A stretch of 46,163 bases of DNA from Acidobacteriota bacterium (GTDB lineage: Bacteria > Acidobacteriota > Terriglobia > JAJPHL01 > JAPKYU01). The stretch is from NCBI GenBank assembly GCA_026394175.1, contig JAPKYU010000013.1, positions 1 through 46,163 on the forward strand. The letters are read 5' to 3'. Shown here one piece after another: positions 824-21,867 of this stretch. The notes beneath the pieces are model-generated. The model did no database searches, had not been told where the DNA came from, and saw only the letters and a list, made by a program, of their open reading frames with translations. Each line of letters begins with the position of its first letter. Positions within the stretch are counted from its first letter, which is position 1. The translations under genes and the position numbers were made by a program.

Positions 824-888
824 CCGCAGATTTCACAGATCGCACAGATCTTCTCGGTCCAATCGGTGCAATCTGCGCGATCTGCGGC
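823..888. repeat. Tandem-unit hairpin (CAGAT-containing units of about 9 nt) filling the gap between two convergent stop codons
   Basis: Arm 1 is GCCGCAGATTTCACAGATCGCACAGATC. Arm 2 is GATCTGCGCGATCTGCGGC. The arms overlap the TAG of the dehydratase and the TAG (888-890, minus strand) of ubiX. Confidence 0.75.
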
Positions 889-1460
889 TAAACTCTTTCC
901 CGCATTCCTTCCCAGCGCTTCACCAGGCCGACATCCAGCCCAAACAAATCCAGGACGCGGCCGACGGAGTGGTTCACGATGTCGTCGATGGATTGCGGGT
1001 GGTTGTAGAAGGCGGGCAGCGGCGGGGCGATGATACCGCCCATCAGCGTCACCGCTTCCATGTTGCGGATGTGGGCCAACGTGAAGGGCGCTTCCCGCAC
1101 CAGCAGCACCAGCTTCCGGCGCTCCTTCAGCGTGACGTCGGCGGCGCGCGCCAGCAGGTTGTCGCACACCCCGGTGGCGATCGAGGCCAGCGTCTTCACC
1201 GAACAGGGCGCGATCACCATGCCGTCAGTATGGAACGAGCCGCTGGAAAGCGCCGCGCCGATATCGCCGACCGGATACCAGTGGTCGGCGAGCTTCCGAA
1301 CATCGTCGGCGGTGTAGGAGGTCTCCCAGGCGATGGTGCGCTCGGCCGCCTCCGATATGATCAGGTGCGTCTCGGCGGCCTGCTCCTGGCGCAACACCTG
1401 AAGCAGGCGGATGCCGTAGATCGCGCCCGTTGAGCCGGAAATGCCCACAATCAGCCGCAT
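888..1460 (-). CDS. ubiX: UbiX-type flavin prenyltransferase
   Basis: MRLIVGISGSTGAIYG at the N-terminus, then MVIAPCSVKTLA and LVLLVREAPF motifs. I chose the ATG at 1458-1460 rather than the longer track ORF (start 1511) because family members begin at the MRL/IVGISG strand. Confidence 0.88.
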   Translation of the reverse strand: MRLIVGISGSTGAIYGIRLLQVLRQEQAAETHLIISEAAERTIAWETSYTADDVRKLADHWYPVGDIGAALSSGSFHTDGMVIAPCSVKTLASIATGVCDNLLARAADVTLKERRKLVLLVREAPFTLAHIRNMEAVTLMGGIIAPPLPAFYNHPQSIDDIVNHSVGRVLDLFGLDVGLVKRWEGMRERV

Positions 1461-1764: not shown

Positions 1765-1784
1765 TGTGATGCACGCACATCACA
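1765..1784. promoter_or_regulatory. Operator-like inverted repeat TGTGATG-N6-CATCACA abutting the -35 element of the cassette promoter
   Basis: Perfect 7+7 bp inverted repeat read directly from the sequence. It ends 6 nt upstream of TTGACA. Confidence 0.3.
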
Positions 1785-1790
1785 GAACCC

Positions 1791-1819
1791 TTGACAACGC
1801 CGAGAAGCGGTAATATCAA
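1791..1819 (+). promoter_or_regulatory. Putative sigma70-type promoter for the two-gene cassette
   Basis: TTGACA (1791-1796), a 17-nt spacer, then TATCAA (1814-1819). It lies about 50 nt upstream of the GGAGG (1859-1863) and GTG start at 1871. Confidence 0.35.
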
Positions 1820-1870
1820 TAGCATCCAGTTCGCGCCGCTTTCCGTCTCATAGGGTGTGGAGGTTGATGA

Positions 1871-2194
1871 GTGACAGATACCGTTTCGAAAACCGGACAC
1901 GACGAAATTGTCCGCCGAAGCGCACTGCTATTGATGATGCGCGGCTACGAAGTCCGAGCCCGAATCGAAGACTGGTTCGAGCCCCCTGATGTCATTTGCG
2001 GTTACCGGCCGGACATTCTGGCCACGCGTGCCAACAGCTTTTTGATCGTCGAGGTGGAGAAGGGCCCGACCGATTGGCCCAAAATCTGCGCGCTGCGTGC
2101 GTTCAAAAACGGACATGCCGACTACAGACTCGTTGTGATTCCCCTCGCAGCTCAATATGACAACGAGCGCTTGTCAGCCGCCATCGGCGGATGA
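1871..2194 (+). CDS. Small PD-(D/E)xK-like (restriction-endonuclease-fold) protein, 107 aa
   Basis: GTG start lies 7 nt after GGAGG. The protein has an acidic N-terminal helix (HDEIVRR), then YRPDILATRANSFLIVEVEKG. This is a PD ... E-x-E-K arrangement resembling Hjc/YraN-type minimal nucleases. The segment has lower GC than its flanks. Confidence 0.6.
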   Translation: MTDTVSKTGHDEIVRRSALLLMMRGYEVRARIEDWFEPPDVICGYRPDILATRANSFLIVEVEKGPTDWPKICALRAFKNGHADYRLVVIPLAAQYDNERLSAAIGG

Positions 2195-3611
2195 TTGCCG
2201 ACAACGATTCCTGATCGCGGTAGCCAAACTCCTTGGCGAGAACCCGGTCGAAGCCGATCCCTCAGCCTGTGTGCGCATTTGCGAGCGCTGGGCGCTTGAG
2301 GAGACGGTGAATACAATCCTGCGCCCGGGCGGCCTTCTTGGCCTGAACCGGGACGTCTTCAGCCGACTGATGATCCAGTGCGGAAAACGTCCCGTCACAG
2401 AGCACTTTTACCAAGCGTTTTTCGCAAAGGCAGCCACGATAGGGCAGTTTGAAGCGGCTGTCGAGAGGTACCGCGTCAAATGCATGCTCCTGTTCGGCAA
2501 CTTCAAGTATGCGTACCGAACCCTCGCGACGGCCAGTCCTCAAAAGCTCCAAAAACTGCTTGAGCAGACAGAACCGCTGGACCAAACCGAGTTTACGAAG
2601 CGACCGGAATTCAACGAGATCGAACGGATACCACTCGAGGACCGGCACCTGCTCGGCTACATCTCCGGAGGACACCAAGATCTCCTGTTCTGCCTAGACT
2701 TCTTTCAGGTTCTTCAAGGATCTCCCGCCGTCAGCAATCTCGGCGAGCTGGGCCTCCAGAAGCAGGAAAAGCTCAGCAAGGTGCTCCGGGAATATGGCCT
2801 CGCGTTCGATCCTGATCGCATCGCCGAGCCTGCCTACCTGGCGCACGTGACGAGCAGGCTTCAAGGGGCGCTTGACTCCGTAAAAAAGCGTGCATCCGAC
2901 GCCATGGAAATGGGCCAGAGGAACACGCGCAGGTACTTGAGCCTCCCGCATCTCGACGTCTACGTGGCTACGTCGATGGAAAAACCTCAGGATTTTGCCT
3001 CTCAGGACAACTTCATCCGCGAGGTCTTCGAGCACAAGGACATCAAGCCTCTGAGGTTGAGATATTTCGATCCGACTCTGTCGTACGCTGACGACCGCGT
3101 CACCAAGGGCCTAATCGAGGCATTGATGCTCCGTCGTGCGAGGGTAACAATCTACAACGCGGGTGCCAAGGACACTCTCGGTAAGGATTCCGAACTGGCT
3201 GCCACATTAGCGCAGGGCAAACCGGTCATAGTCTACGTTGCGGAGGGTGGCGACGAAGCCGAGAAGGAGATACTAAACAGTCGGGCGAAGAAGTTTTTGG
3301 TTGACCACCCCCTGGGGCTGCAGATCGATGTGAATTCCGGAGTGGCACACGGAATAATCGCCGTTCGCTCCGCGCCACAATGCGCACTGCTTCTCCGCAA
3401 GGTTCTGCTCAACCAACTCGAGCTCAAAATTGCGCACGAGGGAGGGAACTACCGGCTTTGCGAGGCGGACACCGGCAGCGTCATTCGGGTTGTGTCGGAC
3501 GATCCCTTCCTGACCCATGCCTTCTGGACATACTTCCATGATACCCGGCGACGGGAATCGGCGCCCGAGCCCCGTCCGAGTGATCGCTCGGCCGCAGCCG
3601 CAGGCGAGTAG
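2157..3611 (+). CDS. Hypothetical 484-aa protein with an unknown helical N-terminal half and a nucleoside 2-deoxyribosyltransferase-like/TIR-like C-terminal domain
   Basis: The ATG at 2157 overlaps the upstream ORF by 38 nt; an alternative in-frame GTG is at 2271. The C-terminal pattern is LDVYVATSM ... YFDPT ... ARVTIYNAGAKDTLGKDSELAATLAQGKPVIVYV. This matches the beta1 / D-x-G-x-x-x-E / GKPV layout of NDT-like Rossmannoid domains. Confidence 0.6.
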   Translation: MTTSACQPPSADDCRQRFLIAVAKLLGENPVEADPSACVRICERWALEETVNTILRPGGLLGLNRDVFSRLMIQCGKRPVTEHFYQAFFAKAATIGQFEAAVERYRVKCMLLFGNFKYAYRTLATASPQKLQKLLEQTEPLDQTEFTKRPEFNEIERIPLEDRHLLGYISGGHQDLLFCLDFFQVLQGSPAVSNLGELGLQKQEKLSKVLREYGLAFDPDRIAEPAYLAHVTSRLQGALDSVKKRASDAMEMGQRNTRRYLSLPHLDVYVATSMEKPQDFASQDNFIREVFEHKDIKPLRLRYFDPTLSYADDRVTKGLIEALMLRRARVTIYNAGAKDTLGKDSELAATLAQGKPVIVYVAEGGDEAEKEILNSRAKKFLVDHPLGLQIDVNSGVAHGIIAVRSAPQCALLLRKVLLNQLELKIAHEGGNYRLCEADTGSVIRVVSDDPFLTHAFWTYFHDTRRRESAPEPRPSDRSAAAAGE

Positions 3612-3669
3612 CTGAGTAGCAGGGTCGGCCCCCGGCGCTGTGCGCCTCGGTTGGCCCCAGGATCCGACC

Positions 3670-3686
3670 GCACGCGCATCGCGTGC
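3670..3686. terminator. Short GC hairpin GCACGCG-cat-CGCGTGC between the convergent cassette ORF and mnmE
   Basis: 7-bp perfect stem seen in the sequence. There is no U-tract, so terminator function is only inferred from its position. Confidence 0.3.
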
Positions 3687-3713
3687 AGACACTCCCTGCT
3701 CGGCGGGAAACGC

Positions 3714-5147
3714 CTATTTCCCGACACAGAACTGGCTGAAGATTCGATCCAACACATCGTCCACCGTGGTCTGGCCGGTAATCATATCCAGGGGGCGCAG
3801 GGCATTGTACAGATCCAGCAGAAGCATTTCATGGGGCACCGCGGCCTGGACCGCGCCGCGAGCCGTATCCAGCGCGGCCAGGGCCTCGCGCAACAGTTGC
3901 TCGTGCCGGATGTTGGTGAGGAAGGCGGTCTCGCGCGAGCCGTCTAGCCCGGGCAGCACGCTATCGAGAATCGCGCGGCGCAAGGCGGGTATGCCCTCGC
4001 CGGTCAGAGCGGAGACCCGCCAGGCCTCAGTGGCACAGCCTTCCAAGTTGTCCGGCACAGGCTTCCCTGGGAGCGCGGCCGTCCCGGCCGCATCCCCGGC
4101 GGGCGAGACGCCCGCGCTCCCAGGAAAGCCTGTGCCACTCAGATCCACCTTGTTCCAGACGAGGAGCGTCGGCCCTGCCTTGCGGCTCTGCTCGATCAGT
4201 TCCTGGTCGGCAGGAAGCAAACCGGCCGCGGCGTCCAGCACCACCAGCGTCAGGTCGGAATCGGCCAGGGCTTCGAACGACTTCTGAACGCCGAGCGACT
4301 CAGCTTCATCGCGCGCCTCGCGAATGCCGGCCGTATCCACCAGCCGCAGCGGAATGCCTTCCAGGTTGATGGTTTCGCTGACCAGGTCGCGGGTGGTGCC
4401 GGGCGCGGCGGTGACGATAGCGCGCTCGCGCTCCACCAGCCGGTTAAACAGGCTGGATTTTCCGACATTGGGGCGGCCGACAATCGCCAGGCTCAAGCCG
4501 GCCTGCACCACACGGCCGTAACGGAAGCTGGAGGCAAAGGCGGCCAGCGGCGCGCGCACGCCTTCGATGCTCTCGAGGATGCGCGCGTCGGGCAGGACCG
4601 AAACGTCGTCCTCGGCGAAATCGATACCCGCTTCCAGCAGCGCGATCAGGTCGACGAGTTGCTTCTTGATCGGCGCCAGCTTGCGGGCCACCGCGCCGGC
4701 CACCTGGCGGGCCGCCACCCGGGCCTGGTAGACGGTCTGCGCCTCGACCAGGTCGCGGACGGCTTCGGCCTGCGCCAGGTCCAGGCGGCCGTTCAGGAAG
4801 GCGCGCAGGGTGAATTCGCCGGGCTCGGCCAGCCGCGCGCCCAGCGCCAGGGCGCGCTCCACCACGAAGCGCAGAACCACCGGCGAGCCGTGGCAGCTCA
4901 CTTCAACTACGTCTTCAGCAGTGTAGGAGTGGGGCGCGCGGAACCAGGTGGCCACGACTTCATCGACCACCTCGCCGGCCTCATCCACCAGTTCGCCCAG
5001 GCGGGCGCGCCACGGCTCCGCATCTGCCGTGGTCCGCACCAGCGCGCCAGCGATGGCGACCGCCTGGCTCCCGGACAAGCGGACGACACCGATGCCGCCC
5101 CGCCCCGGCGGCGTGGAGATGGCCACAATGGTGTCGTCGGTGTGCAT
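3714..5147 (-). CDS. mnmE: tRNA uridine-5-carboxymethylaminomethyl modification GTPase MnmE
   Basis: N-terminal [23 protein letters not shown]-domain motifs [18 protein letters not shown] and NKVD. C-terminal CVGK. Confidence 0.95.
4054..4136. repeat. 83-bp near-perfect palindrome embedded in the mnmE coding sequence
   Basis: Arm GGCACAGGCTTCCCTGGGAGCGCGG (4054-4078) pairs with CCGCGCTCCCAGGAAAGCCTGTGCC (4112-4136). That is 25 nt with one mismatch and a 33-nt spacer. Confidence 0.85.
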
Positions 5148-10178: not shown

Positions 10179-10547
10179 GTTGCGCCAGCCTGTGGAAAAA
10201 CCCCTGTCAAATGCCTGTTGGCAGCGGTATACAGCGACCGAGCTTCCTACGCCCCGGCGCTGGCAGCAGGCGTCCGTCCTCAGGCTCCAATTCCCGCATC
10301 TCCATCGGAACCAAGGGCCTTGGCAGTTTTCCTCGTTTTCCACCGCGCTACTACTACTATTATTGATTTCTTAAGGGGTTCGGTATAGCAATAGGAGTAC
10401 ACTAGGGACCTGGAGAACGCACAGGAGGCCAGGGAGCCGGCTGTGCTGGCAGGGTGTGCGATCAAGCAGCCGGTTGGGGTGAGCCAAGGGGCCTCCGTAT
10501 CGCGGAGCGATGAGCACATGGGCACTTTAGCCAAGAGCATGAGCCAG
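10179..10547. other. Candidate oriC segment in the dnaA-dnaN spacer (weak)
   Basis: TGTGGAAAA (10191-10199) matches the DnaA-box consensus TGTGGATAA at 8 of 9 positions. TTTTCCACC (10336-10344) matches TTATCCACA at 7 of 9. The locally most AT-rich stretch, CTACTACTACTATTATTGATTTCTTAAGG, is at about 10349-10376. Confidence 0.3.
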
Positions 10548-11660
10548 ATGGAATTCACCGTCAATCAAGCTGATCTGGTCAAGGAACTGGGCCTGTCGCA
10601 GGGCGTAGTTGAGAAGAAGACGACCATCCCCATTCTCTCCAATGTCCTGATTGAGGCGCGTGGCGAAGCCATCGAGTTGACCAGTACGGACCTGGAAATC
10701 GGTGTCCGGAGCGCGTGTCCTGCCAAGGTCTCGGCCGAAGGCTCGGTGACTGTGCCGGCCAAAAAATTACTGGACTACGTGCGCCTCTTGGAGAGTGGTG
10801 AGGTCACGGTGCGGCTGCAGGAGAATTTCTGGGTCCAGATTACCGCCAAGCGGGCCCGAACCCGCATGGTCGGCATGTCGCGTGAGAACTTTCCTGTTCT
10901 GCCGCAGATGCCGGATGTGGTGGCGCACCTGGGGGCCGGGATGCTGCTGGACATGATCGGCAAGGTCATCTTTGCGGTTTCCAGCGAGGAGTCCCGCTAC
11001 ACGCTAAACGGGGCGCTGCTGGTGGTACGGCCTGACTCCGTCATTATGGTTGCCACCGACGGCCACCGCCTGGCTTACGTTGAGGCGCCCTACCAGGCCG
11101 GCGTCTCATCGGAGGTCCGGGCCCTGGTCGGCAAGAAGGCCATGGGCGAGCTGATCCGGTTGTTGTCGCAGCAGGAGGATCCCAATTCCATCCTGGACTT
11201 CGGGCGTGATGAGAGCCACCTGTTTTTCCGCACCGGAGGGCGGCTTCTGATCTCCCGCCTGCTCAGCGGCCAATTCCCGAATTACGAGGCGGTAATTCCA
11301 AAGGAGAACAACCGGGTCGTGGTGCTCGATCGCGACGCGGTCGCCGGCGCGTTGCGGCGCGTATCACAATTTGCGGACGAGAGATCGCACGCCGTGAAAT
11401 TGCAGTTGGCTACCGGCGAGCTGAAGGTCTCGTCATCCAGCTCAGAGAGCGGTGAATCGGAAGAGACGCTGGAAGCGCAATATGAGGGAGACGCCGTGCA
11501 GGTCGGATTCAACTCGCAGTACCTGCTGGATTTCCTCGCGGCGATGGGAACGGGGCCGGTGCGCCTCGAATTCAAGGATGAACAGTCGGCGGGGCAGTTG
11601 TGTCCGGCGGGCGCCGACGCTCCTCAGTACCGCTACATCGTGATGCCCATGCGGATTTAG
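10548..11660 (+). CDS. dnaN: DNA polymerase III beta sliding clamp
   Basis: Begins MEFTVNQADLVKEL... and TIPILSNVLIEA, and ends YRYIVMPMRI. I chose the ATG at 10548 over the upstream track start. Confidence 0.95.
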   Translation: MEFTVNQADLVKELGLSQGVVEKKTTIPILSNVLIEARGEAIELTSTDLEIGVRSACPAKVSAEGSVTVPAKKLLDYVRLLESGEVTVRLQENFWVQITAKRARTRMVGMSRENFPVLPQMPDVVAHLGAGMLLDMIGKVIFAVSSEESRYTLNGALLVVRPDSVIMVATDGHRLAYVEAPYQAGVSSEVRALVGKKAMGELIRLLSQQEDPNSILDFGRDESHLFFRTGGRLLISRLLSGQFPNYEAVIPKENNRVVVLDRDAVAGALRRVSQFADERSHAVKLQLATGELKVSSSSSESGESEETLEAQYEGDAVQVGFNSQYLLDFLAAMGTGPVRLEFKDEQSAGQLCPAGADAPQYRYIVMPMRI

Positions 11661-11668
11661 GCTATAGA

Positions 11669-11714
11669 CCGTAGGCTGTGGGCTGTAGGAGGCATCGAGC
11701 CACAGCCTACAGCC
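11669..11714. repeat. GCTGTRG-family heptamer hairpin between convergent dnaN and a small ORF
   Basis: CCGTAGGCTGTGGGCTGTAGG ... GCCACAGCCTACAGCC. Confidence 0.8.
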
Positions 11715-12019
11715 TAATCCAGGTCGATATCCCGTGGCGGGGGTGGGCTGAGCGGCTCATCCTTGGCTTTCTGGAAGGCCTCCTCGAATTTCCGCTCCAG
11801 CAGTTTCACCCGCTTGCGCTCAGCCTGCACACTTTTCTGAAACTGTTCGTCGCGATGGCTTTCCTTGTCGCGCAAGGCCCGCGCGGCCTCGGCCAGGTCG
11901 GAGATTTTGGGGTGCTTGGGAGGGTTGTCATGTGAGATGACCGCGCGCAGGTCCGCGTCCACTCGAAGGCGGGCGTGGCAGCAAGGACATACGATGTCGA
12001 AGGTGCGTGGCCTGCCCAT
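11714..12019 (-). CDS. Small hypothetical protein (101 aa) with an N-terminal CPCC zinc-ribbon-like motif and a charged coiled-coil tail
   Basis: MGRPRTFDIVCPCCHARLRV... followed by a K/E/R-rich helix. The ATG at 12017-12019 lies 2 nt after the deacetylase stop, which suggests translational coupling. The 353-aa track ORF was rejected because it overlaps the deacetylase gene out of frame. Confidence 0.5.
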   Translation of the reverse strand: MGRPRTFDIVCPCCHARLRVDADLRAVISHDNPPKHPKISDLAEAARALRDKESHRDEQFQKSVQAERKRVKLLERKFEEAFQKAKDEPLSPPPPRDIDLD

Positions 12020-12021
12020 AA

Positions 12022-12960
12022 TCAGCCTCCTCCGCTGCCGGTCCGGGTTTTCGCGGCCAGCACGGCATCGCGCAGCGACAATACCGTGTTGGCGTGGATC
12101 ACGACCGTGTCCGCGACGCGGCGGGCGTAACCGCCGGCCAGTGTGGCCATCACCGGCAGGCCGCGCTCCGCGGCCATGCCGAACACCATGTCGTCGCGCC
12201 GGCGCAGGCCCTCGATCGTCAGCCGCAGGCCTCCCAACTGGTCTTCCTTGTAAGGATCGGCCCCGGCCAGGTGAAACACCAGGTGCGGCTGGAACGAGGA
12301 ATAGGCCCGGCGCAGCGCTTCGCCCAGCAACTCCAGGTATTCGGCGTCTTCCACTCCGTCGGCCAGGTTCACATCCAGGGTGCTGGGCGGCTTGGGAACC
12401 GGGTAGTTGTTCTGCTGGTGGATGGAGAGGGTGAAGACTTCCGGATCGCCGCCAAAAATGGCCGCGGTGCCGTTGCCCTGGTGCACGTCGGTGTCCACGA
12501 TGAGGGCCCTGCGAATGACGCCGTCTTTCTGCAAGCGCCGCACGGCCACGGCTACGTCGTGAACGACGCAGAAGCCTTCGCCGTGGTCGGGGTGGGCGTG
12601 GTGGAATCCGCCGCACAGGTTCATGGCCGCGCCCCGCTCCAGGGCCAGGCGCGAGGCCTGGATGGAGCCGCCCGCCGACAGCCAGAACCCCCGCACCAGT
12701 TCCGCCGAGTAGGGAACTTCCAGGCGCGCGACTTCCCAGTGGCTGAGCGTGCCGGCCCGCAGCTTGCGCACCCACTCGGCGGTGTGAACCAGCAGGATGT
12801 CTTCGTCGCAGGCTTCTCGTGGGGCTACGAAATCGGAAGGCTCGGCGGCGCCCTCGGCCAGCAGGCGCTGGTAGATCAGCCGGTACTTGAGGGCGGGAAA
12901 AACGTGGTCGCCCAGGATCAGTTCGTAATCGTCCGAATAGACAACGGGAAACGGCAGCAT
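12022..12960 (-). CDS. Histone deacetylase/acetoin-utilisation family deacetylase
   Basis: GGFHHAHPDHGEGFCVVHDVAVA, DTDVHQGNGT and AGADPYKED motifs of the HDAC/arginase-fold family. Start is at MLPFPVVY (12958-12960). Confidence 0.9.
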   Translation of the reverse strand: MLPFPVVYSDDYELILGDHVFPALKYRLIYQRLLAEGAAEPSDFVAPREACDEDILLVHTAEWVRKLRAGTLSHWEVARLEVPYSAELVRGFWLSAGGSIQASRLALERGAAMNLCGGFHHAHPDHGEGFCVVHDVAVAVRRLQKDGVIRRALIVDTDVHQGNGTAAIFGGDPEVFTLSIHQQNNYPVPKPPSTLDVNLADGVEDAEYLELLGEALRRAYSSFQPHLVFHLAGADPYKEDQLGGLRLTIEGLRRRDDMVFGMAAERGLPVMATLAGGYARRVADTVVIHANTVLSLRDAVLAAKTRTGSGGG

Positions 12961-13059
12961 GGAACCGCTCCAGCCCGATTGTATCAAAACCCGTCGGGAT
13001 CGCCCCCGCGCCCCTGTGCGGCGCCGCGGGCGGACATCACGGAACAACCAGGGCGGCGG

Positions 13060-13082
13060 ATTCGTAAAAGGTGATTACGAAT
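13060..13082. promoter_or_regulatory. Inverted repeat ATTCGTAA-N7-TTACGAAT in a divergent promoter region
   Basis: 8-bp perfect arms between the deacetylase start (12960) and the DUF4097-like start (13128). Its function is unknown. Confidence 0.2.
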
Positions 13083-13127
13083 AGGGGGCCCGTCCAACCG
13101 CCGAAGAAGATGGCGTAGGAGGCTTTC

Positions 13128-14084
13128 ATGCGTATCGTGGTGAGCGTGCTGGTGGCGCTGGCGGCCGTGTTTGTGATGAACTCGCCGGGGATCGTGCCCA
13201 GGCCGGAGGGCCGTTTCCAGCAGACCCTGTCCGTTTCCGGGCCCGTGGAACTCCGCGTGGCGACCGGCTCCGGCTCGGTCCGGGTGCGGAAAGGCGACTC
13301 CCACAGCGTCCGCATCCAGGCGCACATCCGTGCCGATTCGCGCGGCGACGCGGCGCTGGTGCACGACATCGAGCGGAATCCGCCCATCCGCCAGAGCGGC
13401 AATACCATCACCATTGGAACCGAGGTCCGGCGCTGGGAGCATGTCAGCATTTCCTACGAAGTGACGGTCCCGGAACAGACGCAGGTGGGGGCGCGAACCG
13501 GCGCGGGTTCGGTTGCCGTCTACGGCGTGGCGGGACCGGTTGATGCCGCCAGCGGCTCGGGCTCAGTCAATGCGGAAAACATTGGCGCCCGGGTGCTGGT
13601 CAAGAGCGGCGCCGGTTCCATTGCCGTCAGCCGGGCCGGGGGCGACGTGAACGCCATCACCGGCAGCGGCGGCCTGGAGTTGAACGATATTAAGGGTTCG
13701 GCCGAAGCTGAGACCGGCAGTGGAAGCATCAGCGTATCGGGTGCCACCGGCCGCGTCCGCGCCCACACCCGCTCCGGCCGCGTCCGCGTGGCCAAGGCCA
13801 ATGCCGACGTGGATGCCAAGACCGGCAGTGGCGGCATCGAGGTGGACGGCCGGCCCAAAGCGGCCCGCTGGGAATTGCGCACCGGTTCCGGGCCGGTCAC
13901 GGTCAGCCTTCCTTCCGGTACCGGTTTCGAGTTGGATGCGCACAGCGGTTCGGGCCGCATCAGCACCGCCCACCAACTCACCCGCACAGAGGCCTCGGGC
14001 AAGCACGAATTGCGGGGGCTGGTGGGCCGGCCCGACAACCGCGTCTTCATCCGCACGAGCAGCGGCAGCGTCCGCATCGATTAG
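13128..14084 (+). CDS. DUF4097-like beta-strand repeat protein with an N-terminal signal/anchor
   Basis: AGGAGG lies upstream. The N-terminus is hydrophobic. Units of the form (T/S)GSG(S/G)(I/V)xV recur about every 20 aa. Confidence 0.75.
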   Translation: MRIVVSVLVALAAVFVMNSPGIVPRPEGRFQQTLSVSGPVELRVATGSGSVRVRKGDSHSVRIQAHIRADSRGDAALVHDIERNPPIRQSGNTITIGTEVRRWEHVSISYEVTVPEQTQVGARTGAGSVAVYGVAGPVDAASGSGSVNAENIGARVLVKSGAGSIAVSRAGGDVNAITGSGGLELNDIKGSAEAETGSGSISVSGATGRVRAHTRSGRVRVAKANADVDAKTGSGGIEVDGRPKAARWELRTGSGPVTVSLPSGTGFELDAHSGSGRISTAHQLTRTEASGKHELRGLVGRPDNRVFIRTSSGSVRID

Positions 14085-19919: not shown

Positions 19920-20037
19920 CGGCTAGCGACTCTCCTTCAACTTGAAAATACCACAAAGCCGGGAGCGACACAAAGGACGCCGCGGTCTTTTTTGGGCCGG
20001 CTTCTGTCTTCCCTGCTTTTTGTGGTCAAATCTCTAC

Positions 20038-21867
20038 ATGAAACGTTACTCGCTGCTGATTGGTGTTCTGGCGGCCGTCGGAGTGGCAGCCGCGGCCTAC
20101 GCCGTGCAAGCGCAGAAAGCACCAGCCGCCAAGGCCACGCCAGCCGAAGCGCGGGCCTTTCTCACCAGGGCCCAGGCGCGGTTGCTGGAGCTGTGGGCCA
20201 AGGCCGACCGCGCTTCCTGGGTGCAGAGCACCTACATCACCGACGACACCGAACAGATCGCGGCCGAGGCCCAGAAAGACGTGATCGCGGCGGCGACCGA
20301 TCTGGCGCTGGACGCCCGCCGCTTCGACGGCCTCAAGCTGCCTGCCGACACGGCGCGCAAGCTGGAATTGCTGAAGCTTGCCCTCACGCTGCCGGCGCCG
20401 GCGGACCCGCGGAAACAGGCCGAGCTGACGCGCATCGCCGCCTCGCTCGAAGGCGATTACGGCAAGGGCAAGTACTGCCCCGAGGGGCCGCAGGGCAAGT
20501 GTTATTCGCTGAACGACCTGGAGAACATCATGGCCCAAAGCCGCGACCCCGACCAGTTGCTGATGGCCTGGCGCGGCTGGCACAGCATCTCGCCGCCCAT
20601 GCGCCAGCGCTACCAGCGCTTCGTGGAGCTGGCCAACGAGGGTGCGCGCACCCTGGGCTTCGCCGACATGGGCGCGCTGTGGCGCTCGAAGTACGACATG
20701 CCGCCGGAGCAGTTCTCGGCCGAGGTGGAGCGGCTGTGGCAGCAGGTGCGGCCGCTGTACGAGGCGCTGCATACCTACGTGCGCGCCCGGCTCATCCGCA
20801 AGTACGGCAAGGCGGCGGAGCGGCCCGACGGCCTGATCCCCGCCCACCTGCTGGGCAACATGTGGGCCCAGCAGTGGGACAACATCTACCCGCTGGTGGA
20901 GCCGCCCGGCAGCGCCACCGGCTATGACCTGACCGAGCTGCTGAAAGCGAAGAACGTCACCCCGCTCGAGATGGTCCGCTACGGCGAGCGCTTCTTCACC
21001 TCGCTGGGCTTCGATCCCCTGCCGAAGGGCTTCTGGGAACGCTCGATGTTCACCAAGCCGCGCGACCGCGACGTGGTCTGCCACGCCAGCGCCTGGGACG
21101 TGGACCAAGTCGAGGACCTGCGGCTGAAGATGTGCATCGAGATCAAGGGCGAGGACCTGGTCACCATCCATCACGAACTGGGCCACAACTTTTACCAGCG
21201 CGCCTACAGCACGCTGCCCCCGCTGTATCGCGACAGCGCCAACGACGGCTTCCACGAGGCCATCGGCGACACCATCGCCCTGTCGGTGACGCCTGCCTAC
21301 CTCAACAAGATCGGGTTGCTGGCCCAGGCGCCGAAGGAGGGAAGCGAGCTGGGCGAGCTGATGATGCGGGCCTTGGACAAGGTCGCGTTCCTGCCCTTCG
21401 GCCTGCTGATCGACCAGTGGCGATGGAAAGTGTTCTCCGGCCAGATCAAGCCCGCCGACTACAACAAGACCTGGTGGGAACTGCGAAAGAAATACCAGGG
21501 AGTCGCCCCGCCGCTGGAGCGCAGTGAGGCGGATTTCGACCCCGGAGCGAAGTATCACGTTCCGGCCAACGTGCCCTACACCCGCTACTTCCTGGCCGAC
21601 ATTCTCCAGTTCCAGTTCCACCGCGGGCTGTGCCGCGCGGCCGGCCACCAGGGGCCGCTGCATCGCTGCTCGATTTACGCCAATGCGGCCGCCGGAGCTA
21701 AGCTCAGGCAGGTGCTGGAGATGGGCAAGAGCCAGCCGTGGCCCGAGGCGCTGAAGGCCCTCACCGGGGAAGACCGCATGGATGCTACCGCCATCCTGGA
21801 TTACTTCGCCCCGCTCAAGAAATGGCTGGACGAGCAGAACAGGAGACCAGTGACGAGTGACAAGTGA
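20038..21867 (+). CDS. M2-family (angiotensin-converting-enzyme-like) zinc metallopeptidase with a signal peptide
   Basis: [10 protein letters not shown] plus HEAIGD (HEXXH + E). Signal peptide is [23 protein letters not shown] chose the ATG at 20038. Confidence 0.9.

Follow-up and report, generated by a model that had tools for sequence, protein, structure and literature searches.

We analysed a stretch of 46,163 nucleotides from the genome of an Acidobacteriota bacterium (contig JAPKYU010000013.1, positions 1 to 46,163, referred to as the window), in which two overlapping genes, termed A and B, lie between the housekeeping genes ubiX and mnmE. A first-pass annotation, made from the DNA sequence without database searches, had described the pair as a compositionally foreign cassette with expression signals of its own. 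Both open reading frames, including their overlap of 38 nucleotides, were found where it had placed them, and the motifs it had quoted for A and B are present in the translations. On identical metagenome contigs the gene order is ilvD, ubiX, A, B, mnmE, jag, yidC, yidD, dnaA and dnaN. The guanine plus cytosine (GC) content is 0.571 for A and 0.581 for B, compared to 0.649 for ubiX, 0.685 for mnmE, 0.692 for jag and 0.655 for the whole window. Moreover, the GC content at third codon positions (GC3) is 0.66 for A and 0.69 for B, compared to 0.77-0.88 for the neighbours, a measured dip that agrees with the foreign composition ascribed to the segment between ubiX and mnmE. The coordinates of all features are listed in Table 1.

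The overlap of the two reading frames suggests that their translation may be coupled. Metagenome gene callers shorten A to 86 amino acids by using an internal ATG start. Two residues close to the N-terminus of the 107-amino acid form, H10-D11, are invariant in the orthologues, which shows that the GTG start is correct and that the shorter calls are truncated.

The promoter-like element, the Shine-Dalgarno motif and the inverted repeat reported upstream of A were all recovered at their positions. The promoter was missed by a consensus scan, since the last position of TATCAA is not a T. Perfect TTGACA hexamers occur only twice on the plus strand of the 46-kb window, and the block TTGACAAC...GCGGTAATAT[C/G]AATAGCATC is kept in two diverged relatives (loci L095 and L097), whereas the remaining spacer is unalignable. 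Between ubiX and the cassette, the spacer (1461-1772) is near-unalignable with L095 (53-72% identity), in contrast to an identity of 91-97% for ubiX, the promoter block and A. The start of the conserved block coincides almost exactly with the inverted repeat (1765). As an operator this repeat is a possible but weak candidate: at least one perfect 7+7 repeat is found in 29% of the dinucleotide shuffles of the spacer, and 6 of its 7 positions are kept in L095 while it is lost in L097. Being neither significant against the shuffles nor well conserved, it was not accepted as an operator. A CRP-like reading of TGTGA...TCACA was also rejected, since the half-sites are 10 nucleotides apart and not 6, which is the spacing in the CRP consensus.

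In line with the earlier description of the borders, no integrase was detected among the scanned open reading frames and annotated neighbours, no tRNA and no convincing border repeat, only short chance ones. No Rfam family was matched in the window. The locus thus shows none of the hallmarks of a classical genomic island, be it a gene for an integrase or transposase, a tRNA target or direct repeats at the flanks.

Table 1. Coordinates of the A-B cassette, its domains, signals and flanking genes in the window, and of related genes and neighbourhoods in other loci.
Feature	Locus	Position	Strand	Remarks
A	window	1871-2194	+	GTG start, 107 amino acids
B	window	2157-3611	+	ATG start, 484 amino acids
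A/B overlap	window	2157-2194	+	38 nucleotides, 3' end of A on 5' end of B
B N-terminal domain	window	2157-2942	+	residues 1-262, predicted all-helical; no PDB, BFVD or Pfam match
B C-terminal domain	window	2943-3611	+	residues 263 to ~461, then disordered tail; predicted divergent NDT/SLOG-like Rossmannoid
Inverted repeat	window	1765-1784		perfect 7+7, TGTGATG-N6-CATCACA; abuts -35 element; left edge of block conserved with relatives
Promoter-like element	window	1791-1819	+	TTGACA (1791-1796)-17-TATCAA (1814-1819), inside phylogenetic footprint
Shine-Dalgarno motif	window	1859-1863	+	GGAGG, 7 nucleotides before GTG of A; conserved in L095 and L097
ubiX	window	888-1460	-	flavoprotein; housekeeping gene, left flank
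mnmE	window	3714-5147	-	housekeeping gene, right flank, convergent with B
Mosaic tract	window	~2520-3900		mid-B to 3' end of mnmE; raised dS (0.4-1.1) and low DNA identity against L095
Region after dnaN	window	10521-13600
Peptidase_M2 gene	window	19942-21867	+	641 amino acids
A-B pair	L007	8001-9724		after dnaA-dnaN
A-B pair	L092	7001-8736		after dnaA-dnaN
A-B pair	L009	7688-9353		after dnaA-dnaN
A-B pair	L011	7700-9359		after dnaA-dnaN
A-B pair	L178	6688-8410		convergent with gyrA
A-B pair	L180	6695-8365		convergent with gyrA
A-B pair	L179	5956-7675		next to lexA
A-B pair	L094	7001-8670		PolX two genes away
8xMP gene	L027	7415-7879		beside B homologue
8xMP gene	L042	9578-10063		beside B homologue
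8xMP gene	L043	9151-9639		beside B homologue
8xMP gene	L067	306-842		beside B homologue
8xMP gene	L077	9612-10100		beside B homologue
HTH-B locus	L030	7629-12714
HTH-B locus	L042	6656-10063
A-paired B with SNF2 and Eco57I/MmeI-type neighbours	L012	2431-9734
HTH-fused B with SNF2 and Eco57I/MmeI-type neighbours	L036	265-7595
A as called in metagenome annotation	L001	9778-10038		86 amino acids, truncated
Region of A-B fusion and ubiD	L017	9547-11145
Order dnaN, rubrerythrin, dnaA	L031	7872-15640

Predicted folds of A and B

The AlphaFold model of A (predicted local distance difference test score, pLDDT, 86.1) has the topology H3-23, E27-30, E49-53, E56-63, H66-81, E85-91, and its core is the alpha-beta-beta-beta-alpha-beta nuclease fold seen in Hjc-type nucleases. 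Foldseek matches this model to Hjc (2eo0, 2wiw, 4tkd), to the R2 RLE endonuclease domain and to Bax1, with probabilities of 0.98-1.0. Sequence and profile searches of the PDB with A yielded nothing meaningful. In Pfam, A hits the AHJR-like family PF18743 with 17.1 bits (E=0.004), which is below the gathering threshold of 26.1. A profile search recovered 175 orthologues, most of which carry PF18743 in precomputed annotation, flagged as 'weak' where a flag is shown. Among 40 orthologues no variation occurs at residues H10, D11, P47, D48, K64, D68, P70 and K71, while E61 is kept in at least 90%. The acidic residue and the lysine are spaced E61-x-x-K64, with E, K or T at residue 63, and they are followed by a family-specific D68-W-P-K71 motif. 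As modelled, A corresponds to a minimal PD-(D/E)xK nuclease of the Hjc/AHJR type, whose acidic/lysine site looks intact, and the same proposal in the first-pass annotation is borne out by the model, the Foldseek matches and the presence of PF18743 on the orthologues.

The model of B (pLDDT 87.6; predicted template modelling score, pTM, 0.84) consists of a helical domain (residues 1-262) and an alpha/beta domain (268-447). For residues ~263-450, the best Foldseek matches in the PDB are nucleoside 2-deoxyribosyltransferases (NDTs), the MilB/BcmB/BlsM group and DNPH1/Rcl (probability 0.94-1.0). The top specific matches are 2a0k, 6qai, 7m5h, 4ohb, 2klh, 7o62, 4fyh and 4jen, and the target-normalised TM scores of the NDT-type matches are 0.45-0.65. 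TIR structures stand further down the list, with BcThsB at rank 12 and the RRS1 TIR domain at rank 28, and in the viral structure library BFVD the C-terminal domain matches phage NDTs. The fold thus belongs to the NDT-like branch of the TIR/SLOG/NDT assemblage, to which it had been assigned beforehand. The helical residues, which could not be placed then, match nothing in the databases given in Table 1; hits to eIF2B, MthK and polyproteins in the PDB and BFVD were discarded because of their low probability. Of the checks that had been proposed for the two proteins, structure prediction and fold comparison have therefore upheld both fold assignments.

Sequence searches place B less readily. The window copy has no Pfam match even at E<=1, including PF05014 and PF18306, no match in NCBIfam, PADLOC or PHROGs, and PDB sequence and profile searches with the whole protein or its C-terminal domain gave nothing meaningful. 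Among 36 C-terminal domains of the family, taken from many phyla, the only recurrent Pfam matches are weak ones to SLOG cluster 4 (PF18306; 10/36, best E=0.0052, below threshold) and to Nuc_deoxyrib_tr (PF05014; 7/36, best E=2.3e-4). None of the 36 matches the TIR Pfam family, so that there is no sign of TIR membership.

The same 36 sequences reveal many residues that are invariant across phyla: N256, D267, Y269, A271-T-S-M274, R302, F304, P306-T307, K317, E321, G342-K-D344, E346, G354-K355, H384-P-L386, R444 and F456. Residues ~120-262 are the most variable ones of the N-terminal domain. The motif G342-K-D-S-E346...G354-K-P-V recalls what we take to be the nucleophile-glutamate segment, followed by a GKP turn, of NDT, DNPH1 and LOG enzymes; the equivalence of E346 to the glutamate of NDT and DNPH1 is one of motif resemblance. 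In the model, B is a family-specific helical domain joined to a divergent Rossmannoid domain of the NDT/SLOG type.

Distribution, partners and age of the pair

A homologue of A is adjacent to B in all 17 loci that were examined in a close acidobacterial clade. It usually lies upstream and overlaps or abuts B, and in one subclade it lies downstream and is convergent. Fusions with A at the N-terminus were found for 7 of the 120 best B matches, and locus L017 contains another one. Moreover, the more similar the A proteins of two loci are, the more similar are their B proteins (r = 0.86 for pairwise identities), and dN/dS is 0.18-0.33 for both genes (0.19-0.33 for A), indicating purifying selection. 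Since the two genes are co-inherited and occasionally fused, A and B very likely work as one complex. The coupling that the overlap had first hinted at thus extends to constant adjacency, joint divergence and fusion. That A and B co-occur elsewhere is true for the close clade, but outside its loci no homologue of A was detected.

The B family is much broader. A profile search of 1.84 billion representatives identified 884 clusters at 50% identity with E<=1e-3 (432 with E<=1e-30), through which the two-domain architecture is constant, with no spill-over into classical NDTs. Relatives of B are found in 278 of 185,579 species representatives, which are scattered over at least ten phyla (Acidobacteriota, Myxococcota, Bacteroidota, Planctomycetota, Verrucomicrobiota, Clostridia, Chloroflexota, Actinomycetota and others); eight representatives of the close clade are among the best 80 of the 278. 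Pfam, NCBIfam and PADLOC hold no model for the family, and our literature search found no work on it.

Many B homologues have no recognisable effector partner. In 21 of 80 loci, B is a protein of ~650 amino acids with an N-terminal XRE-type helix-turn-helix (HTH-B), as in L030, L042, L049, L068, L072, L077 and L081, and in 7 of these 21 it is operonic with a D12-class (Dam-like) N6-adenine methyltransferase, which in L030 is followed by a 769-amino acid protein with a DndB domain. In five loci from different phyla, a gene for an 'octameric membrane protein' (8xMP, PF24838) lies directly beside the B homologue; our literature search on 8xMP yielded nothing relevant. The neighbours of HTH-B comprise Dam together with the DndB-domain protein, an SNF2 protein with an MmeI/Eco57I-type enzyme and a protein kinase, an OLD-family ATPase-TOPRIM nuclease, and a PNP_UDP protein. 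A-B pairs are found beside a DprA-like protein, an Eco57I/MmeI-type methylase-restriction enzyme (RE) and an SNF2-PLD protein (L012), beside PDDEXK_1 and a 1,697-amino acid YjiV_N helicase (L091), and near SIR2-Macro (L094). A core that stays constant, as B does, while its partners change in this kind of neighbourhood is typical of conflict systems.

Two of these neighbourhoods are alike across the B subtypes: in L012 the A-paired B, and in L036 the HTH-fused B, adjoin an SNF2 helicase and an Eco57I/MmeI-type methylase-RE. In L012, the SNF2 protein is fused to PLD and the DprA-like protein is added, while L036 adds a protein kinase. This shared company may represent a recurrent larger system or island.

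Within the acidobacterial clade, another kind of neighbourhood recurs. The pair directly follows dnaA-dnaN in L007/L015, L092, L009/L014 and L011. In L178 and L180 it faces gyrA in convergent orientation (gyrB is close by in L180, as it is in L092), in L179 its neighbour is lexA, and in L094 it lies two genes away from PolX. In the window, dnaA is ~5 kb away. Moreover, two genomes of Clostridia carry a homologue of B without A at a distance of 3-6 kb from dnaN and dnaA. A family-wide linkage to replication genes was rejected: it is limited to the acidobacterial clade and one subgroup of Clostridia, and the remaining ~60 loci across the wider family showed no sign of it. Part of the linkage may go back to one ancestral position in a since-rearranged dnaA-dnaN-gyrB-gyrA cluster.

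The first-pass annotation regarded the pair as a cassette that had been horizontally acquired into a housekeeping block. Its accessory nature is corroborated: the pair is patchy across species, GC-poor, and absent beyond mnmE in 80 acidobacterial loci with a related MnmE. A strict empty site was not demonstrated; the nearest MnmE relatives in metagenomes are only 55-63% identical, and the absence of A-B therefore indicates lineage specificity and not an empty site. That the insertion was recent does not hold. The layout of ubiX, A-B and mnmE is shared by three diverged lineages, namely the window, L095 (identity to the window of 92% for A, 79% for B, 94% for ubiX and 90% for mnmE) and L097 (76%, 69%, 89% and 68%, respectively), with a synonymous divergence (dS) of ~1 for B compared to L097. 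B is ~50-57% identical to its counterparts in other Acidobacteria, and DnaA, DnaN and MnmE are 52-63% identical. In each of the 17 hosts the GC content of the pair is lower than that of its surroundings, the difference being 1.5 to 18.7 points, and the deficit is therefore a standing property of the two genes and not the mark of a recent event. Such a persistent deficit is common for the mobile accessory pool. Finally, since the origin-proximal or replication-gene-adjacent position recurs in distant relatives, the location is no random accident.

We also compared dS along the cassette between the window and its nearest relative, L095. The flanking genes have values of 0.21-0.32, A has 0.13 and codons 1-120 of B have 0.10, followed by 0.7-1.1 for codons 121-262, 0.63 for codons 263-370 and 0.38 for codons 371-462. 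Low DNA identity continues across the intergenic region between B and mnmE and the last ~190 nucleotides of mnmE. Positive selection on the variable segment of B was rejected, since dN/dS stays at 0.16-0.38 and it is dS that is raised, which fits better with recombination. The tract is thus probably the product of homologous exchange with a divergent allele, whose donor lineage had the same locus layout.

Some features of the surroundings are noted in passing. According to the annotation of locus L001, dnaN in this genome (window 10521-13600) is not followed by recF or gyrB, and a 101-amino acid open reading frame, a histone-deacetylase-family gene and a DUF4097 gene are found instead; in L011, the A-B pair is placed between dnaN and a DUF4097 gene. 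In L031 and L055 (Christensenellaceae and other Clostridia), the order is unusual, with dnaN, a rubrerythrin gene on the opposite strand and dnaA. While ubiX adjoins the pair in the window, ubiD, which encodes the partner enzyme of UbiX, adjoins the A-B fusion of L017; this proximity may be a coincidence or a remnant of synteny. Further downstream, the window encodes a protein with a full-length Peptidase_M2 match (E=1.6e-231), a bacterial homologue of angiotensin-converting enzyme (ACE).

Known systems and competing explanations

Our literature search for NDT-like or SLOG components of defence systems found only work on retrons and Thoeris. The effector of type II-A retrons (Ec86/Eco1, Sen2) has an NDT-like domain of the same fold class as the C-terminal domain of B, with a catalytic-type glutamate. 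It depletes nucleotides of the adenine type, and a component that recognises DNA is coupled to it, with DNA methylation as a cue (10.1101/2023.08.16.553469; PMC13276650), and the relatives of B associate with DNA methylases as well. In contrast to these retrons, however, A-B has no reverse transcriptase nearby, the neighbours being ubiX and mnmE, and no msr/msd, as judged by the absence of Rfam matches in the window. The helical N-terminal domain of B is different and unmatched, its partner is a predicted PD-(D/E)xK nuclease, and no sequence similarity is detectable, PADLOC, which includes retron effectors, giving no match.

NDT, DNPH1 (Rcl) and MilB-BcmB-BlsM (PF05014 and relatives) are the best structural matches of the C-terminal domain of B, which has GKDSE...GKPV, a motif that resembles the segment in which these enzymes carry the nucleophile glutamate and the GKP turn. 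Unlike them, B has the additional invariant residues R302, K317, E321, H384-P-L and R444 as well as 260 helical residues at its N-terminus, lacks a Pfam NDT match at E=1 in the window copy, and belongs to a closed family of 884 clusters. SLOG domains (LOG-like; ThsA of Thoeris; PF18306) belong to the same Rossmannoid assemblage, match 10 of the 36 B-family C-terminal domains weakly and occur in nucleotide-centred conflict systems (PMC13276650). However, these matches are below threshold and missing for the window copy, the top structures are NDT-type and not LOG-type, and, unlike Thoeris, A-B has no SIR2 or TIR partner.

A has the core fold of Hjc and the AHJR-like family PF18743, and a PD...E..K site that recalls theirs, but it scores below the cut-off of the latter and differs in the E61-x-x-K64 spacing and the D68-W-P-K71 motif. 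Moreover, we know of no tie between Hjc and a B-type partner. The operons of HTH-B and a D12-class methyltransferase in 7 of 21 loci follow the gene logic of restriction-modification pairs, and HTH-B could act as an 'R' component that cleaves glycosidic bonds. R.PabI is a restriction enzyme of the DNA-glycosylase type, whose fold is unrelated to that of B. A methyltransferase, however, is present neither in the window cassette nor in any of the 17 A-B loci. With no PADLOC match, no reverse transcriptase or noncoding RNA, no methyltransferase, no TIR or SIR2 protein and Pfam scores below the thresholds, A-B is outside any named system, as the first-pass annotation had anticipated. By analogy, A-B would work like nucleotide-centred conflict systems while being a member of no named one.

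Judging from domain logic and neighbourhoods, the explanation that we favour, at about even odds, is that A-B is an uncharacterised two-component conflict module directed against phages or other foreign DNA. Characterised members of the NDT/SLOG-type fold cleave N-glycosidic bonds. In such a module, the helical domain of B would sense a trigger or confer specificity (variation and recombination are strongest in its second half), the NDT-like domain would cleave an N-glycosidic bond, and A would cleave DNA. The substrate of B might be a nucleotide, with depletion as the outcome as for DNPH1, MilB or the effector of retron Ec86, or else a DNA base. When phages attack, the Ec86 effector, which is NDT-like, depletes adenine derivatives (10.1101/2023.08.16.553469; PMC13276650). 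The proposal is based on the predicted folds, on the constant pairing of A with B (17 of 17 loci, fusions, correlated identities, purifying selection), on the accessory traits of the pair (presence of B relatives in 278 of 185,579 species representatives, absence on the mnmE side in 80 loci, GC deficit in 17 of 17 hosts, mosaic tract), on the defence-type neighbours in L012, L091, L094 and the HTH-B loci, and on the modular pattern in which the B core is elsewhere joined by a Dam-type methylase, an N-terminal HTH or 8xMP.

Several observations weigh against it. In PADLOC-DB v2.0.0 neither A nor B matches any family at E<=1, B has no PHROG match, and among the scanned open reading frames of the window there is no other defence or mobility gene. 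The spacing of E61 and K64 in A is one residue off the canonical (D/E)-x-K, catalysis by B is deduced from motif conservation, and SLOG-type domains can also be non-catalytic ligand sensors. Finally, about half of the acidobacterial loci adjoin replication or repair genes (dnaN, gyrA/gyrB, lexA, PolX) and not defence islands, a recurrent link in distant Acidobacteria that a role in defence does not explain.

It is this link that would be accounted for if the pair served replication-linked DNA maintenance, which we regard as rather unlikely. B would rid the nucleotide pool of unwanted species, in the way DNPH1 deals with hmdUMP, or would remove aberrant or modified bases from DNA, and A would process the abasic or branched DNA that results, as an accessory repair function. 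Besides the acidobacterial pairs next to dnaN, gyrA, lexA and PolX and ~5 kb from dnaA in the window, the B-only homologues near dnaN and dnaA in the two Clostridia genomes are in its favour, as is the presence of DNPH1 and Hjc among the fold relatives of B and A. Yet dnaN, gyrB and gyrA form one ancestral cluster, so that several of the associations may reflect a single inherited position, and the linkage does not reach the other ~60 loci of the wider family. Moreover, a patchy distribution (at least eight close-clade representatives among the best 80 of 278), absence beside mnmE in the 80 related loci, a lasting GC deficit and the swapping of partners (Dam, HTH, membrane protein) are untypical of core repair genes. 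Because the slots differ (after dnaN, before gyrA, between ubiX and mnmE), DNA maintenance nevertheless stays the main rival. In a different division of labour, B would be non-catalytic. It would bind a ligand derived from a nucleotide, comparable to gcADPR in the case of the SLOG domain of ThsA, and would thereby activate A, the sole effector, allosterically. The weak SLOG cluster 4 matches in 10 of 36 family members, the role of SLOG domains as ligand sensors in Thoeris (PMC13276650) and the constant B core with varying effector-like partners (nuclease A, 8xMP) are consistent with this. We nevertheless consider it unlikely, since a signal-producing enzyme (TIR, cyclase) is found neither in nor beside the cassette, many B homologues lack a recognisable effector partner, the structures closest to B are those of enzymes (NDT, MilB, DNPH1), and the glutamate proposed as nucleophile does not vary across phyla.

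A recent horizontal insertion specific to this genome, to which the low GC and GC3, the 80 other acidobacterial loci without the pair at the equivalent position and the hypervariable spacer between ubiX and the cassette might point, is largely refuted as far as 'recent' is concerned and is in our estimate very unlikely: L095 and L097 are occupied at the same site, with cassette and flanks having diverged together, the GC deficit of all 17 hosts carries no date stamp, the identity of B to other Acidobacteria is on a par with that of DnaA, DnaN and MnmE, and integrase, tRNA and border repeat are missing. The two overlapping genes of a small operon, with their accessory distribution and, in L180, an adjoining PhdYeFM antitoxin gene, could also bring to mind a toxin-antitoxin-like addiction pair, in which one protein is toxic, the other neutralises it and self-maintenance is the only function. 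However, stable A-B fusions are ill-suited to a toxin with a labile antitoxin, both proteins have enzyme-like invariant sites, and B is also encoded on its own or beside very different partners, which makes such a pair highly unlikely.

More speculative, and distinctly doubtful to us, is that the B family is a new class of the NDT fold that acts on DNA itself. It would carry out a base excision that is sensitive to sequence or modification, after which A would cut the lesion, resulting in a glycosylase-nuclease type of restriction or surveillance. In the HTH-B systems, Dam-type methylation would mark self, and the acidobacterial siting beside dnaN, gyrA and oriC would follow from an action on newly replicated DNA.

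A-B represents an undescribed family and pairing, which would fall within the recognised theme of nucleotide-centred conflict. Candidate defence modules of two genes are numerous. Conserved targets for mutagenesis are D48 and K64 in A, and E346, D267, Y269, R302 and H384 in B. With 884 clusters in at least ten phyla, the B family is sizeable and unannotated. If A-B is a defence system, it would constitute a new two-gene architecture for nucleotide-centred immunity and, besides retrons and independently of them, a second use of effectors of the NDT-like kind. If, on the other hand, it serves DNA maintenance at the replication cluster, it would point to an accessory kind of repair that has so far gone unrecognised in a phylum abundant in soil.

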